Of a stretch of DNA of 64,000 nt, positions 1,262 through 58,559 are shown one piece after another. Numbering within the stretch: the first letter of the stretch is position 1; every line of letters starts with the position of its first letter. A model generated the notes under the pieces. It had not been told where the DNA came from. It saw nothing but the letters and a program-made list of their open reading frames with translations, and searched no databases. The stretch is from Escherichia coli (GTDB taxonomy: Bacteria; Pseudomonadota; Gammaproteobacteria; Enterobacterales; Enterobacteriaceae): assembly GCF_051903065.1 (NCBI RefSeq), contig NZ_CP178438.1; one strand, 5' to 3'. The position numbers and the translations under genes are program-made.

Positions 1262-1360
1262 GCCCCCTCACCCTAACCCTCTCCCTCAGGGAGCTGTCTC
1301 TTGATCAGATCTCCTGATCAAGAGACAGGGGGAGAGCCGGGGAGAGGGGAAAAGGCCGCA
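1262..1360. repeat. Extragenic GC-rich imperfect palindrome with a perfect 15-bp inverted repeat core (ctgtctcttgatcag / ctgatcaagagacag, 5-bp spacer)
   Basis: Read directly: 1294-1308 and 1314-1328 are exact reverse complements; outer arms ccctc.../...gagggg are imperfectly complementary. Lies between lldD stop and trmL start. Confidence 0.7.
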
Positions 1361-1407
1361 CGGTTCACCAATTTTCTGCTATCCTGCCCCCGCACTAAGG
1401 GGGCAGT

Positions 1408-53576: not shown

Positions 53577-54959
53577 TTAGTTCTGCACTTCTTGAGAGGT
53601 GAATTGTTGCTGGCAACGGCGTTTGCCCTGGGCCAGCTGTTCCATAACGGTTTTCAGATTGTGCGTCGTGAGTGAGTAGTAGCGTTTAGCGATAATCGCG
53701 CTCAGCAAATAACAGATCGCCGGAACAATCGTGAATAGCGCAATAATGATGCTAATCGTGGCGCTGTTCTGCGCTTTTTCTGCCGCATCATATCCGCCAT
53801 AAGCCAGCATCCAGCCGATAAGAGCGCCGCCGAAGGCCAACCCCAGTTTGAGCACAAACAGCGTGCCAGCAAAACTGATCCCGGTCAGGCGTTTACCATT
53901 GCACCACTCGCCGTAGTCGACGGTATCGGACATCATTACCCACTGGATAGGTGTCACCAGTTGATGCAACACACCAATCACGAAGATGAAGACAAACATA
54001 GTGATGCTGGCCTGCATGGGAACAAAGAACATCGCGAGGCTAATCACTGCCAGCAGGGCGTTCGTCCACCAGAAAATAGTGACTTTACATTTCCAGTCGG
54101 TCAGCGGTTTTGCCAGAGCGGAACCAATCAGGTTACCCACGCAATAAGTGGTGAGAAAAGCGACAAACACTTCCGGCGTACCCAAAATCCATGTGACGTA
54201 ATACATCATCGCTCCACCGCGTACGCACACCGCCAGGATATTGAAAATGGTTAGTAAACCGACAATCCGCCACTGGTCGTTTTGCCAGATATCACGTAAA
54301 TCTTCCCGCATAGACGTCGTTGTAGGTGGTGCTTCAACGCGTTCTTTAGTGGTGAAGAAACAGAATGCCAGCATCATGAATGCCACCACGGAAAGGACCG
54401 CGATACCACCCTGGAAACCGAGTGGTTTATTATCACCACCAATTAAATTAACCAGTGGCATCATCAGAACCGTAGAAAGCATGCCTCCCGCGGTCGCCAG
54501 CACAAAACGCCAGGATTGCAGCGAGATACGCTGAGTCGGGTCATTGGTGATTACACCACCCAATGCGCAGTAAGGGATATTGACGACGGTATAAAGTAAG
54601 GTAAGTAGGGTGTAAGTAATTGCTGCATAAATCATTTTTCCGTTCATACTGAGATCTGGCGTGCTATAGGCCAGTACACAGACGATCCCAAATGGCAGTG
54701 CGCCAAACAGTACCCACGGACGAAATTTACCCCAGCGAGAGCGCGTTCGATCGGCCAACAACCCCATGCAAGGATCGGAAATCGCATCCAGTGCACGAGC
54801 GACCAAAAACATGGTTCCGACAAATCCGGCAGGAATGCCAAAAATATCGGTATAAAAGAACATCATATATAACATTACGTTATCGAAAATAATGTGGCTG
54901 GCGGCGTCTCCCATGCCATAACCAATTTTCTCTTTAACGGACAACACTTCACTCTTCAT
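53577..54959 (-). CDS. yicJ: GPH-family sugar:cation symporter
   Basis: 460-aa polytopic ORF MKSEVLSVKEKIGYGMGDAASHIIFDNVMLYMMFFYTDIFGIPAGFVG...; cotranscribed with yicI. Confidence 0.9.
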   Translation of the reverse strand: MKSEVLSVKEKIGYGMGDAASHIIFDNVMLYMMFFYTDIFGIPAGFVGTMFLVARALDAISDPCMGLLADRTRSRWGKFRPWVLFGALPFGIVCVLAYSTPDLSMNGKMIYAAITYTLLTLLYTVVNIPYCALGGVITNDPTQRISLQSWRFVLATAGGMLSTVLMMPLVNLIGGDNKPLGFQGGIAVLSVVAFMMLAFCFFTTKERVEAPPTTTSMREDLRDIWQNDQWRIVGLLTIFNILAVCVRGGAMMYYVTWILGTPEVFVAFLTTYCVGNLIGSALAKPLTDWKCKVTIFWWTNALLAVISLAMFFVPMQASITMFVFIFVIGVLHQLVTPIQWVMMSDTVDYGEWCNGKRLTGISFAGTLFVLKLGLAFGGALIGWMLAYGGYDAAEKAQNSATISIIIALFTIVPAICYLLSAIIAKRYYSLTTHNLKTVMEQLAQGKRRCQQQFTSQEVQN

Positions 54960-55251
54960 CTACTTTTCCTTGATGCTATAGGGGTGCTGAGACCGATAAC
55001 GCATTTTGTAAACCATCCCTGTGAGAGCGAATATTCCGATATCTGGTTATTAATTTATGATTCTTGTTTTATGTGATCGTGGTAGCGTTAATTCCGCTCA
55101 TATGTCATTGTAAAATATGGATTTTATATGAACTATAATGCTTTCGTGATAATACGCTGCGTGTATTAGGCGGAAAAAACTGATCTGGGGGATGTAGAAA
55201 CTCAAGGAAGTAGCTATAATGCGCCCCGCCTCCATGTAGCAATCGAGGCGC

Positions 55252-55346
55252 GGAAGATCGTCGTCTCCGGTGAGGCGGCTGGACTTCAAATCCAGTTGGG
55301 GCCGCCAGCGGTCCCGGGCAGGTTCGACTCCTGTGATCTTCCGCCA
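55252..55346 (+). tRNA. selC: tRNA-Sec (selenocysteine, anticodon UCA)
   Basis: 95-nt sequence ggaagatcgtcgtctccggtgaggcggctggacttcaaatccagttggggccgccagcggtcccgggcaggttcgactcctgtgatcttccgcca, with long variable arm, UCA anticodon and encoded CCA. Confidence 0.95.
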
Positions 55347-55645
55347 GTTTACCTCTTCTGAACTCTCCCAATGTCAATAAATCTCTTCTAATCCCTTGTA
55401 TATCAGTATTTATTTGTATCCAGAGGTCAACCTACTTCACCCCGTATCAAGTTTCTTTTGGGGGTACTTTAGGGGGTGTTATTTCCTATTGAAATACCAG
55501 CACCCCCATAATAGGAAAAATGTGATATATAACAACGGCTTTTAACAACATCTTTGTTATACAAGGGGTGTATTGGGGGTATCAGGTTAGTTACTGGCAG
55601 AAATCCCCCTCAGGAACATGAATTCATCAAAAGCCGGAGGATGTC

Positions 55646-56437
55646 ATGGCATTAACCGATATCAAAGTGAAAACCGCAAAACCCAAAGACAAACCCTATA
55701 AGCTTGCTGATGGCGGCGGTATGTATCTACTGATTAACACTAATGGTTCTAAATACTGGCGCATGAAGTACCGCTTTGCTGGTAAAGAAAAGATGCTTTC
55801 TATTGGCGTATACCCCGATGTAACGCTAGCCGATGCTCGCGAGAAACGCAGTGAAGCCAGGAAACTCCTCGCTGCTGGAGGCGATCCAGGGGAGGCAAAA
55901 AAGGAAGAAAAAATCGCGCAGCAAATGAGTCTGCAAAATACGTTCGAGGCTATTGCTCGCGAATGGCACCAGTCAAAAGCCGATCGGTGGTCATTACGCT
56001 ATCGTGATGAAATCATTGATACCTTTGAAAAAGACATTTTTCCCTACATTGGCAAGCGCCCTATTGCCGAAATCAAACCAATGGAGTTACTGGAAGCACT
56101 GCGTAAAATGGAAAAACGTGGAGCTCTGGAGAAAATGCGCAAGGTCCGCCAGCGCTGTGGTGAGGTGTTCCGCTATGCAATTGTTACTGGCCGGGCAGAC
56201 TATAACCCAGCCCCCGATCTTGCCAGTGCTTTAGCTACACCGAAAAAAGTACATTTTCCCTTTCTTACTGCTAATGAACTTCCCCACTTCCTCAACGATC
56301 TGGCGGGTTATACCGGAAGTATAATCACTAAGACAGCTACTCAGATCATTATGTTAACCGGCGTACGAACACAAGAACTGCGTTTTGCACGCTGGGAAGA
56401 TATCGATTTTGAGACAAAATTGGGCTTTGTTGAATAA
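55646..56437 (+). pseudogene. Truncated P4-type tyrosine integrase (N-terminal arm-binding and core-binding part only)
   Basis: 263-aa ORF MALTDIKVKTAKPKDKPYKLADGGGMYLLINTNGSKYWRMKYRFAGKEKMLSIGVYPDV... (typical P4-family integrase N-terminus), 300 bp downstream of selC. Native sequence ends at 56422; the frame runs 4 codons into the IS left inverted repeat and stops. The catalytic R..HxxR..Y domain is absent. Confidence 0.85.
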
Positions 56438-57479
56438 ATCGAACTTTTGCTGAGTTGAAGGATCAGATCACGTATCTTCCCGACAACGCAGACCGTTCCG
56501 TGGCAAAGCAAAAGTTCAAAATCACCAACTGGCCCACCTACAATAAAGCCCTCATCAACCGTGGCTCCATAACTTTCTGGCTGGATGATGAAGCTATTCA
56601 GGCCTGGTATGAGTCAGCAACACCTTCTTCACGAGGCAGACCTCAGCGCTATTCTGACCTTGCCATCACGACTGTGCTGGTCATTAAACGCGTATTCAGG
56701 CTGACCCTGCGCGCTGCGCAGGGCTTTATTGATTCCATTTTTTCTCTGATGAACGTTCCGCTACGCTGCCCGGATTACAGCTGTGTCAGCAGGCGGGCAA
56801 AGTCGGTTAATGTCAGTTTCAAAACGCCCACCCGGGGTGAAATCGCACACCTGGTAATTGATTCCACCGGGCTGAAGGTCTTCGGTGAAGGCGAGTGGAA
56901 AGTCAAAAAGCATGGCCAGGAACGCCGCCGTATCTGGCGTAAGCTGCATCTCGCCGTTGACAGTAAAACACATGAAATCATCTGCGCTGACCTGTCGCTG
57001 AACAACGTTACGGACTCAGAGGCCTTCCCCGGGTTAATCCGGCAAACCCACCGGAAAATCAGGTCAGCCGCCGCCGATGGCGCTTACGATACCCGGCTAT
57101 GTCACGATGAACTGCGGCGTAAGAAAATCAGCGCGCTTATCCCTCCCCGAAAAGGTGCGGGTTACTGGCCCGGTGAATATGCAGACCGTAACCGTGCAGT
57201 GGCTAATCAGCGAATGACCGGGAGTAATGCGCGGTGGAAATGGACAACAGATTACAACCGTCGCTCGATAGCGGAAACGGCGATGTACCGGGTAAAACAG
57301 CTGTTCGGGGGTTCACTGACACTGCGTGACTACGATGGTCAGGTTGCAGAGGCTATGGCCCTGGTACGAGCGCTGAACAAAATGACGAAAGCAGGTATGC
57401 CTGAAAGCGTGCGTATTGCCTGAAAACACAACCCGCTACGGGGGAGACTTACCCGAAATCTGATTTATTCAACAAAGCC
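56423..57479 (+). mobile_element. IS903-group (IS5-family) insertion sequence, 1057 bp, intact 18-bp terminal inverted repeats, no target-site duplication
   Basis: Left end ggctttgttgaataaatc (56423-56440) and right end gatttattcaacaaagcc (57462-57479) are exact inverted repeats. The left-end sequence matches the IS903 end of Tn903 as I recall it. Flanking 9-mers acaaaattg and ggatttcat are not identical. Confidence 0.88.
56455..57423 (+). CDS. IS903-family DDE transposase
   Basis: 322-aa ORF (TTG start in the track) ...YLPDNADRSVAKQKFKITNWPTYNKALINRGSITFWLDD...; it fills the IS between the inverted repeats. The true start may be downstream. Confidence 0.85.
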   Translation: MKDQITYLPDNADRSVAKQKFKITNWPTYNKALINRGSITFWLDDEAIQAWYESATPSSRGRPQRYSDLAITTVLVIKRVFRLTLRAAQGFIDSIFSLMNVPLRCPDYSCVSRRAKSVNVSFKTPTRGEIAHLVIDSTGLKVFGEGEWKVKKHGQERRRIWRKLHLAVDSKTHEIICADLSLNNVTDSEAFPGLIRQTHRKIRSAAADGAYDTRLCHDELRRKKISALIPPRKGAGYWPGEYADRNRAVANQRMTGSNARWKWTTDYNRRSIAETAMYRVKQLFGGSLTLRDYDGQVAEAMALVRALNKMTKAGMPESVRIA

Positions 57480-57770
57480 GGATTTCATCTGAACAACGGC
57501 CCACAGGCCGATCGACTTGCCGACCTGGAAAGAATGCTGCATCTGTTCAGCGGCAAACCGATCCCCGACAACCGGGAAAACATCACTATTCATCTGAATG
57601 AGCACATCCGGTCTGTTCAGGGTAAAGAGTGCTATGAAGATGAAATGTTCAGCATCAGATACTTTAAGAAGGGCTCCGCGCACATCACGTTCAGGAAACC
57701 AGAACTGGTTGATCGGCTAAATGATATTATAGCCAGACACTATCCGGAAATGTTACCTTCACAATAGAGT
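57480..57770 (+). pseudogene. Orphan 3' gene fragment (C-terminal 96 codons of an unidentified protein) abutting the IS right end
   Basis: The frame is open from the first base after the IS right repeat (GFHLNNGPQADRLADLERMLHLFSGKPIPDNRENITIHLNEHIRSVQGKECYEDEMFSIRYFKKGSAHITFRKPELVDRLNDIIARHYPEMLPSQ) with no start or ribosome-binding context. Family not recognised. Confidence 0.5.
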
Positions 57771-57899
57771 ACTAAGAATTGATTCAATTATGTATTTTAG
57801 CTTCATTCCTTCATGCAAAATCATTTGGGGGTTCTTATGGGGGTTACTCATTTATCCAACACATACAAATTATTTAAGATCAATGCATTAATACTTATA

Positions 57900-57921
57900 T
57901 TCGACTCCTGTGATCTCCGCC
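57900..57921 (+). repeat. Imperfect direct repeat of the selC 3' end (attR-like island boundary)
   Basis: tcgactcctgtgatctccgcca matches selC 55324-55346 (tcgactcctgtgatcttccgcca) apart from a single T deletion; the following ~50 nt also resemble the sequence just downstream of selC. Confidence 0.8.
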
Positions 57922-58559
57922 AAAATGCCTCTCCTGACGTTCTCCAACCCCTTGTAATACTGTCAATCCAGATATTTTCTACTGCTCAATATTCAATCGG
58001 CTTCAGGAATACCTGGTCTAAGGTTTTGTGATGGACGATGAGCGGCTGAAGAATCCGCCTGTCGGTTCTTCTGTCCTCGAACGCATCCGCGATATTCACG
58101 CCAGTATGCGCCGTGTTTATTTGCAGGTGATTTGCCCCCCTGCTGACTCTCAGCCAACTGTATCGCCATTAAGGTGAAGATGTTGTTTTACTCGCCCCAG
58201 AACACCCTTTTTTATACGACTATTCTATTTCTTTAACCGCTGGCGAAAAAAAACTGACTATAAACTTCACCAATAATCAGACTGCCATCAAGATTAATTT
58301 GTTCATTTAATATATCAAATCAACTTGTTTTATTTTTACTATCAAAAATAGCTCATTGCCTTACTATAATTAATATATAAATTCGGTAATTAATTCTTAA
58401 CATGCTTTTACTAATAATCTCAATTGCTGGCCCTATAATATTGCGCTAGCATTGCTTTCTGGTTGTATCAGCGATACTCAAAAATTCTTAATACAATACT
58501 CATTCGACTGGTACTTATTTGTAACTCAGTTATATTTTTTCGCCCGGTGATTCAGAAGA

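Follow-up and report, generated by a model that had tools for sequence, protein, structure and literature searches.

The window, that is, the whole 64-kb stretch of Escherichia coli DNA analysed here, carries the remnant of an island integrated at the 3′ end of selC, the gene of tRNA-Sec. The integrase gene (int) follows the tRNA gene directly and in the same orientation, and the tRNA 3′ end is repeated at the far boundary. The locus comprises the following features:

55252–55346, + strand: selC (tRNA-Sec), the integration target (ARAGORN; Rfam RF01852, 83.8 bits)
55323–55346, + strand: attL core, the 24-nt 3′ end of selC, repeated at the other island boundary
55347–55645: spacer of 299 bp between selC and the start of int
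55646–56422, + strand: integrase remnant, codons 1–259, with the arm-binding and central domains kept and the catalytic domain lost
56423–57479, + strand: IS903B, 1057 bp, which cuts int (sequence; RefSeq annotation in matching genomes; Pfam DDE transposase domains)
57480–57767, + strand: 3′ tail of the island's last gene, a DUF4942 gene (Pfam PF13708; annotation in relatives)
57825–57846, + strand: far-arm (P-arm) pair ttGGGGGTtcttatGGGGGTta, with G5 runs at 57827 and 57839, 12 bp apart (flank-independent conservation)
57900–57922, + strand: attR, the second copy of the selC 3′ end, 23 nt long, with one T fewer than selC

The exact 14-mer CGACTCCTGTGATC occurs in the window at 55325 and 57902 only, and a search of the window found no further copy of the selC 3′ end of the kind that tandem islands would leave. 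The whole remnant measures 2.6 kb from attL to attR, and its right arm 132 bp. Up to position 56422, the remnant of int is 100% identical to intact int genes. As revealed by a Pfam search, it retains the arm-binding domain PF13356 (Arm-DNA-bind_3, formerly DUF4102; residues 3–88, E = 8.8e-31) and the central domain PF22022 (residues 100–194, E = 2.5e-36); the PDB domain matches of the integrase are 3JU0 and 3JTZ, each a 'CP4-like integrase'. The sequences flanking IS903B differ, and the element thus lacks a target-site duplication, which indicates a deletion of the island interior. The exact remnant was found in only two of 5,426 complete E. coli genomes, those of strains 23CRST027 and 23CRST031. 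In other strains, e.g. BE2-5, the left arm is 100% identical, int is intact and the arms are about 30 kb apart. The island in this strain is dead, having lost the catalytic half of int and its interior through IS903B.

Repeats of the left arm and their conservation

The spacer between selC and int contains two groups of G5/C5 motifs, A and B, each consisting of two direct copies and one inverted copy, and a conserved block between them:

55458–55467, + strand: predicted arm-type site A1, ttGGGGGTac; its G5 run starts 114 bp past the tRNA end; invariant in 17 relatives
55470–55479, + strand: predicted arm-type site A2, tagGGGGTgt, 12 bp after A1; invariant in 17 relatives
55501–55510, - strand: predicted arm-type site A3, caCCCCCata, inverted, 31 bp after A2; ACCCCCATAAT is invariant in 17 relatives
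55528–55563, no strand assigned: conserved block with the inverted repeat TATAACAA (55528–35) / TTGTTATA (55554–61) and the tandem TAACAACNNCTTT
55563–55572, + strand: predicted degenerate arm-type site B1, aaGGGGTgta, with the G-run at 55565–69; column conservation 0.95
55573–55583, + strand: predicted arm-type site B2, ttGGGGGTATC, 10 bp after B1; column conservation 0.98
55601–55611, - strand: predicted arm-type site B3, aaatCCCCCtc, inverted, 30 bp after B2, with an off-consensus flank; column conservation 0.89
55564–55645, + strand: predicted int promoter and leader, with the Shine-Dalgarno sequence GGAGG at 55636–40 (placed from the construct of PMC7286903 that starts at primer MC124)

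A preliminary description of this DNA had drawn attention to several G5/C5 strings and inverted pairs in the spacer. A check of the letters located all the quoted strings, namely ttgggggtac at 55458–55467, agggggtgtt at 55471–55480, cacccccata at 55501–55510, ttgggggtatc at 55573–55583 and aaatccccctc at 55601–55611. The inverted pair GGGGGTG (55472–78) / CACCCCC (55501–07) was likewise recovered by an inverted-repeat search, but its description as part of a set of 'interleaved' inverted repeats was a misreading, the two halves being sites 2 and 3 of triple A. Four features of the locus do not appear in that description: the degenerate site at 55565–69, the far-arm pair at 57827/57839, attR at 57900–57922 and the inverted repeat TATAACAA/TTGTTATA.

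The motifs are clustered far beyond expectation. The 64-kb window contains 44 runs of at least five G or C, and five of them lie inside the 181-bp stretch 55440–55620, where 0.11 would be expected (Poisson P = 1.3e-7). Shuffling of the spacer, which is AT-rich with a GC content of 40%, gave a mean of 0.14 runs, and none of the 20,000 shuffles reached five. The hexamer GGGGGT is not enriched window-wide (13 found vs 18.7 expected), so that the signal consists in local clustering. The 18-nt pattern GGGGGT-N6-GGGGGT is present in two places only in the window, at 55460 and at 57827, with 0.07 expected; the second place is in the right arm, which holds cattTGGGGGTtcttatGGGGGTtact with the same word and the same 12-bp spacing as A1/A2.

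The preliminary description had proposed a comparison with the attL regions of related islands. Seventeen selC-type spacers were aligned, originating from E. coli, Salmonella diarizonae, Photorhabdus, Trabulsiella, Yokenella, Pseudocitrobacter, Yersinia, Lelliottia, Kluyvera and several metagenome-assembled genomes. Sites A1, A2 and A3 proved invariant in all 17, and the conservation of B1–B3 was 0.89–0.98 vs a spacer mean of 0.86; among 20,000 random block sets drawn on this alignment, none was as conserved as the motif columns. In four sequences, the 80 bp beside the core are swapped for unrelated DNA, and from ATCAAG onwards, immediately ahead of A1, the sequences are conserved again. On the other side of the island, the block CATTTGGGGGTnnTTATGGGGGTTA is conserved among seven right arms, and even strains with a different gene to its left keep it, though with only G4 in the second run. 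The inverted repeat TATAACAA/TTGTTATA pairs at 7–8 of 8 positions in all 17 relatives.

The other inverted pair of the preliminary description, tatttcctatt/aataggaaa, is indeed present in the window (TTTCCTATT, 55482–90, and AATAGGAAA, 55510–18) but is not conserved. It is perfect only in the window and in one relative, the integrase of which is 97% identical, and elsewhere 4–7 of the 9 positions pair, without compensating changes. It was consequently rejected as a functional element and treated as incidental.

Layout of the repeats in phage P4 and across the integrase family

The attP sequence of phage P4 (X05947) contains the word GGGGGCA at 81 and 93 in the far arm, a 20-bp core at 156–175, and the same word at 290 and 302 on the int side, where the two copies flank the annotated -10 sequence (295–300). 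An inverted copy, TGCCCCC, is located at 332, 7 bp before the ATG at 339, which aligns with the start codon of the window; the X05947 record itself annotates the int coding sequence from 327, and the distances given here use the ATG at 339. The layout of the window closely follows that of P4. The members of each direct pair are 12 bp apart in both, the second direct site and the inverted site are 31 bp apart in the window vs 30 bp in P4, the second far-arm site lies 83 bp vs 82 bp from the core end, and the first int-side site follows the core end after 114 bp vs 115 bp. In the attP rebuilt from the two arms of the window, the second far-arm site and the first int-side site are 197 bp apart, as in P4 (197 bp). 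P4 Int shares 45% identity and the same domains with the selC reference integrase (strain THO-006).

The comparison was extended to a set of loci comprising 80 from contigs taken as one genome per species (80 of 314 relatives, with integrases 97–42% identical) and 80 from IMG/VR. Among the genome loci, 62 of 80 had the G-run triple, including loci with integrases as little as 42% identical. In the canonical arrangement, the G-runs start at -51 and -39 (direct) and at -7 (inverted) relative to the int start codon, and the spacer between the tRNA gene and int is 164–176 bp long; the tRNA genes include those for tRNA-Gly, Arg, Thr, Phe, Sec, Met and others. An unbiased scan accepted any 7-mer in the order direct, 11–13 bp, direct, 22–37 bp, inverted, with at most one mismatch in total. 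It found the triple in 102 of 137 loci, always with the 12-bp spacing, and in none of 137 control stretches inside int. The word itself varies by clade and includes G5-types, TAGGCCC and TGTTGGT.

An upstream pair of the same word, which marks an uninterrupted attP, was found in one of the 96 family loci searched, the IMG/VR locus L130, where the distance between the second far-arm site and the first int-side site is 196 bp. The other 95 loci are integrated copies, and far arms could thus be checked only in P4, CP4-57, L130 and the lineage of the window.

The E. coli-type selC lineage, to which the window belongs, departs from the canonical arrangement. Its spacer is 292–299 bp long, about 135 bp longer than canonical, and its triple A lies at the canonical distance from the core, 143–186 bp from the start codon. 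The weaker triple B follows the conserved block, at -81, -71 and -41 in the lineage of the window. At B3 the word is departed from (GGGGGA), and C4 alone is conserved there. A comparison of clusters A and B by eye, made for signs that B arose by recent duplication of A, showed little in common past the G-runs. The canonical selC integrases of Proteus and Providencia (79% identical) have a 164-bp spacer with one triple abutting the start codon (loci L019 and L048).

The bases past the G-run are also informative. The first of them is identical at all three sites in 43 of 44 loci, and the flanks are uniform within a locus, being TAT/TAT/TAT, CAT/CAT/CAT or CYT/CTY/CCT; in the lineage of the window they are less uniform (TAC, TGT, TGC; TAT; ATT; TTC, TTA) than in canonical loci. 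The first two bases agree between the two direct copies in 36/44 loci and between the second direct and the inverted copy in 29/44, vs 12.7 when the flanks are shuffled among loci. Besides, the class of the site follows the residue that comes next to the conserved K-E-K, on its C-terminal side, in the arm-binding domain. Arginine accompanies CA flanks (25/25), lysine CC or CT flanks (12/13), leucine, valine or methionine TA flanks (19/20), and methionine TG flanks (11/11), the class that includes the lineage of the window; common ancestry confounds this association, to which there is a single exception (L036/L055).

It is very likely that the G5/C5 motifs are arm-type binding sites of the island's own P4-family (CP4-like) tyrosine integrase. 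From the layout, the conservation and the analogy with related systems, we infer that Int itself binds there. The preliminary description had named arm-type integrase-binding sites as one candidate, and the invariance of A1–A3, the match to the P4 attP layout and the recurrence across the integrase family support it. The other candidate named there, recombination-directionality sites, is not favoured, since both arms carry the motif, with the 2 + 3 distribution that integrase arm sites typically show.

The closest rival would assign the repeats to the island's excision factor, a recombination directionality factor of the Vis/AlpA/Xis type, in place of the integrase. Direct repeats spaced by about one helical turn are the usual targets of such factors, which the 12-bp pairs fit, and P4 Vis is said to bind two boxes between the core and int (Cali and co-workers, 2004). 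This explanation nevertheless appears improbable. The word stands on both arms and recurs in inverted form beside the start codon, which is the 2 + 3 arrangement of integrase arm sites, the class of the site tracks the arm-binding domain of the integrase, and no excision-factor gene is left between 55347 and 57922.

A marginally smaller chance is given to a control of translation or termination by secondary structure, with the G5/C5 pairs folding into hairpins in the leader RNA of int or into DNA cruciforms. The minimum-energy fold of 55455–55522 does pair A2 with A3 (-19 kcal/mol), and in canonical loci the Shine-Dalgarno sequence is found between sites 2 and 3, the flanks of which are complementary. 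However, the folding of the two clusters is not unusual in comparison with shuffles (z = -1.04 and +0.68), and an Rfam scan of 54900–56000 with permissive thresholds found tRNA-Sec only. In P4, the annotated -10 sequence between sites 1 and 2 would place site 2 at or upstream of the transcript start. A hairpin would, moreover, explain the inverted pair alone, whereas site 1 and the far-arm pair share the word and the flanks, and the direct copies agree with each other in more loci than the direct and inverted copies do; the agreement of flanks within a locus argues for a protein site. Finally, chance or compositional clustering of G/C runs in AT-rich foreign DNA, or a G-quadruplex, has a negligible probability: the spacer is AT-rich, holds 17 short inverted-repeat pairs, many at chance level, and has four G-runs on the + strand, but five runs against 0.11–0.14 expected, the restriction of the 18-nt pattern to the two island arms and the invariance of the motifs across genera speak against chance, and the + strand gaps of 7, 88 and 6 nt make a compact quadruplex impossible.

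Predicted roles of the sites in recombination and in the control of int

If the motifs are arm-type sites of the integrase, the N-terminal Arm-DNA-bind_3 domain of Int would bind the GGGGGT(A/G/T) repeats, eight words in all, two in the far arm and six on the int side, and the C-terminal domains would bind the core inside the selC 3′ end. With the far-arm pair (57827, 57839) and A1/A2 in direct orientation and A3 inverted, Int could bridge the arms and the core. IHF would bend the arms, and the bridge would be formed by the arm- and core-bound domains of the same protomers. The resulting complex would integrate attP into selC and, with the excision factor, would excise the island by recombining attL with attR. 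In most members of the family, the int promoter and the ribosome-binding region lie under the int-side triple as well, so that bound Int would be expected to repress its own gene. In P4, both Int and Vis are reportedly involved in autoregulation, and the N-terminal part of P4 Int is said to be enough for autorepression (Piazzolla and co-workers, 2006).

A scan of 55200–55800 for promoters and terminators found neither a + strand consensus sigma-70 promoter nor a terminator; its one promoter-like site is on the minus strand and at the level expected by chance. The overlap of the sites with the promoter is for this reason deduced from plasmid constructs of strain 536. The primers MC125 and MC124 of that work match the window at 55541–60 (20/20) and 55564–78, respectively. 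A fragment starting at MC125 binds IHF and one starting at MC124 does not (PMC7286903, Chitto et al. 2020), which places the IHF box in 55541–63, between triples A and B. The integrase IntI of the pathogenicity island PAI I536 strongly represses its own promoter, and the IHF box damps that promoter (PMC7286903). Removal of the box raises the firing of the intI promoter about 20-fold and destabilises the island (PMC7286903). The box-less construct still expresses intI, which suggests that the promoter lies downstream of 55564, under triple B. Such an autoregulated integrase promoter overlapping attL is a property of the 'STI' tRNA-integrase arrangement (Panis et al. 2010, PMC2951348).

The predicted sites are likely operators for the autorepression by IntI and for the IHF effect in strain 536. 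More specifically, triple B, together with IHF, is probably the operator through which Int represses int. On this hypothesis, triple A would serve recombination, and triple B (55565, 55575, 55605) with the IHF box would serve repression.

The preliminary description called the sites orphaned, which is correct in one respect and incomplete in another: IS903B has removed the catalytic domain, but the Arm-DNA-bind_3 and central domains are both still encoded in the 259 codons that remain. With the catalytic half of int gone, the sites are unable to support recombination by their own enzyme. They can at most bind the truncated N-terminal fragment or a related integrase acting in trans. The DNA-binding half, Int(1-259), may still occupy the predicted sites.

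Two further readings are put forward jointly and as a speculation, the chances of the pair being rather low. According to the first, an ancestral dual-purpose triple would have been split in the E. coli-type selC islands into A, the recombination set, and B, the set of promoter operators, with an IHF-bent segment between them, which would make recombination and autorepression tunable independently. According to the second, the residue after K-E-K (R, K, L/V or M) would specify the two bases past the G-run (CA, CY, TA and TG, respectively). If true, this would constitute a simple recognition code, of use for the prediction of att arms and for the design of orthogonal integrases.

Comparison with known systems

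The kind of feature described here is already known, and the accepted picture of tyrosine-integrase arm sites is unchanged. The arm sites of λ Int are the textbook model. The P4 repeats have been known since 1987, when Pierson and Kahn reportedly noted five of them. A search of open papers found none that maps Int sites at selC islands, and the same literature search found described neither the family-wide 12/30-bp triple with clade-specific words nor the doubled triple of the E. coli-type selC lineage. The practical use lies in annotation: the true attL and attR arms of selC islands are marked by the G5 triple together with the far-arm pair. The selC site is occupied by LEE-associated elements as well as by PAI I536, and P4-family elements at other tRNA genes also have the triple ahead of int; a simple pattern search could delimit such islands and predict whether they are still mobile.

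The arm-type sites of λ Int (P1, P2, P′1–P′3) resemble those proposed here in that the integrase has two domains, the core is flanked by arm sites on either side and the DNA is bent by IHF (PMC2951348). The λ system differs in the family of the arm-binding domain, in the word, in the spacing and in the orientation pattern, and λ int is not transcribed from within attP. A P4-family integrase at a tRNA gene is found in ICEMlSymR7A, where five arm-type sites, P1–P5 (TGKTGGTATC), are all needed for integration (PMC11963761). Here attP and intS are the sole element-encoded factors required for integration, and bound IntS blocks the transcription of intS (PMC11963761). The word resembles B2 (TGGGGGTATC) and has no G5 run; the comparison covered the word and the number of sites.

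In CP4-57 of E. coli K-12, with its integrase IntA, a triple of the type direct, 12 bp, direct, about 31 bp, inverted precedes intA, and the far arm carries a 12-bp pair 84 bp before the end of the ssrA repeat. The word is AGGCCCA/GGGACCA, and the int-side arm is about 22 bp longer, with 135 bp from the core to the first site vs 114 bp in the window.

Phage P4 shares with the island of the window a G5-based word, the set of two direct repeats in the far arm with two direct and one inverted repeat on the int side, and a core formed by the 3′ end of a tRNA gene with int immediately downstream. The word is GGGGGT(A/G/T) in the window and GGGGGCA in P4, and the target is selC for the island and leuX for the phage. 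The spacer is 299 bp long in the window vs 163 bp in P4 (core end to ATG 339). Unlike P4, the window has an IHF box and a further, degenerate triple in the stretch from triple A to int. The distance between the inverted site and the start codon is 143 bp in the window (A3) and 7 bp in P4.

The selC-intL locus of E. coli O157:H7 EDL933, which lies upstream of the LEE-associated element, belongs to the same lineage as the window, its IntL being 96% identical to the THO-006 reference integrase, and the attL arm is shared. Its spacer is 195 bp long as a result of a 104-bp deletion with end points in the G-runs A1 and B1, which leaves a single triple. The promoter PintL is repressed 4-fold by IntL (PMC2951348, Panis et al. 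2010), and the loss of half the sites is offered as a reason for this weak autorepression. The selC-intI locus of PAI I536 in the uropathogenic E. coli strain 536 is orthologous DNA and has its IHF box between the triples. The paper on this island (PMC7286903) left the integrase binding sites unmapped. In PAI I536 int is intact and the island excises, whereas in the window int is cut by IS903B and only the 2.6-kb remnant is left.

The int-side arm and its possible recognition code

The int-side arm carries two triples of predicted arm-type sites (the G5/C5 words A1-A3 and B1-B3) in the spacer between selC and the P4-family integrase gene int. In four selC-type spacers from related integrase loci (L009, L015, L016 and L018), approximately 80 bp adjoining the core is unrelated in sequence to window positions 55390-55445, and homology to the window restarts at ATCAAG, immediately before A1. 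The functional part of the arm on the int side may thus begin at ATCAAG.

The first 60 codons of int were compared with the 60 bp preceding it in loci L007-L176. In the Arm-DNA-bind_3 domain, the residue that follows the conserved K-E-K varies together with the two bases following the G-run. Arginine is found with a CA flank (25/25), lysine with CC or CT (12 of 13), leucine, valine or methionine with TA (19 of 20), and methionine also with TG (11/11). One exception to this match is L036/L055 (Affinibrenneria), where an R-type domain occurs with TAT sites. The association may represent a recognition code, but it is confounded by ancestry.

Window positions 55528-55563 contain a conserved inverted repeat, TATAACAA/TTGTTATA, and a tandem repeat, TAACAACGGCTTT / TAACAACATCTTT, which bracket or include the IHF box that was mapped in uropathogenic strain 536 (window 55541-55563). 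Co-variation is uninformative for the inverted repeat because both of its arms are invariant. These repeats could be IHF sites or excision-factor boxes. The spacer also contains the following promoter-like sequence, made up of two invariant blocks, ATAACA and CCCCCATAAT:

55508-55535, minus strand: promoter-like TTGTTA-16 nt-TATTAT, directed toward selC

The count for this promoter-like sequence was not above that in shuffled sequences.

The island remnant and its right end

The 2.6-kb island remnant is interrupted by one insertion sequence:

56423-57479: IS903B, 1057 bp, abutting int codon 259 on one side and the final part of a DUF4942 gene on the other

The 9 bp on either side of IS903B are unlike each other (acaaaattg and ggatttcat), and the interior of the island has therefore been lost by deletion through the IS. 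Among 5,426 complete E. coli genomes, the exact int-IS903B-DUF4942 configuration was found in only two, strains 23CRST027 and 23CRST031, in which about 22 matches to the query are present. The IS903B-DUF4942 junction alone was found at further loci in other strains.

At attR (window 57900-57922), the repeated selC 3′ end, GATCTCCGCCA, has one T fewer than selC itself, GATCTTCCGCCA, and no third copy of this end was found within the window. The right arms of APEC E19019, ExPEC XM and p4A lack four bases within the same copy. A rhuM gene fragment is annotated immediately outside attR in related genomes (window 57960-58180), and an intact rhuM lies inside the island in ExPEC XM and p4A (L087 and L088, 603-764), adjoining the far-arm pair (57827/57839 in the window). 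The placement of rhuM hints at older island remnants or at recombination between different selC islands.

Similar words away from selC

A selC-type int-side arm fragment is located among IS elements, away from selC, in E. coli XJ5.2 (L005, 2440-2700), where the annotation overlaps a hypothetical protein. It spans the core end through A1 and A3, without A2, and is evidently a scrap of an island that has been transposed or rearranged. At window positions 1263-1403 a cluster of four G5/C5 runs, unrelated to the selC arm sites, lies within a palindromic repeat element; it includes ctgtctcttgatcagatctcctgatcaagagacag and tgcccccgcactaagggggca.

The spacer deletion in O157:H7

The spacer between selC and intL, the orthologous integrase gene of O157:H7 strain 1130 (L004, 2501-2695), lacks 104 bp compared with window positions 55460-55565. 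In the alignment, both end points of the deletion lie within the G-runs A1 and B1, and it looks like the product of recombination or slippage between arm-site repeats. A single triple is left in the O157:H7 spacer, and this loss may account for the weak (4-fold) autorepression reported for the intL promoter, PintL.
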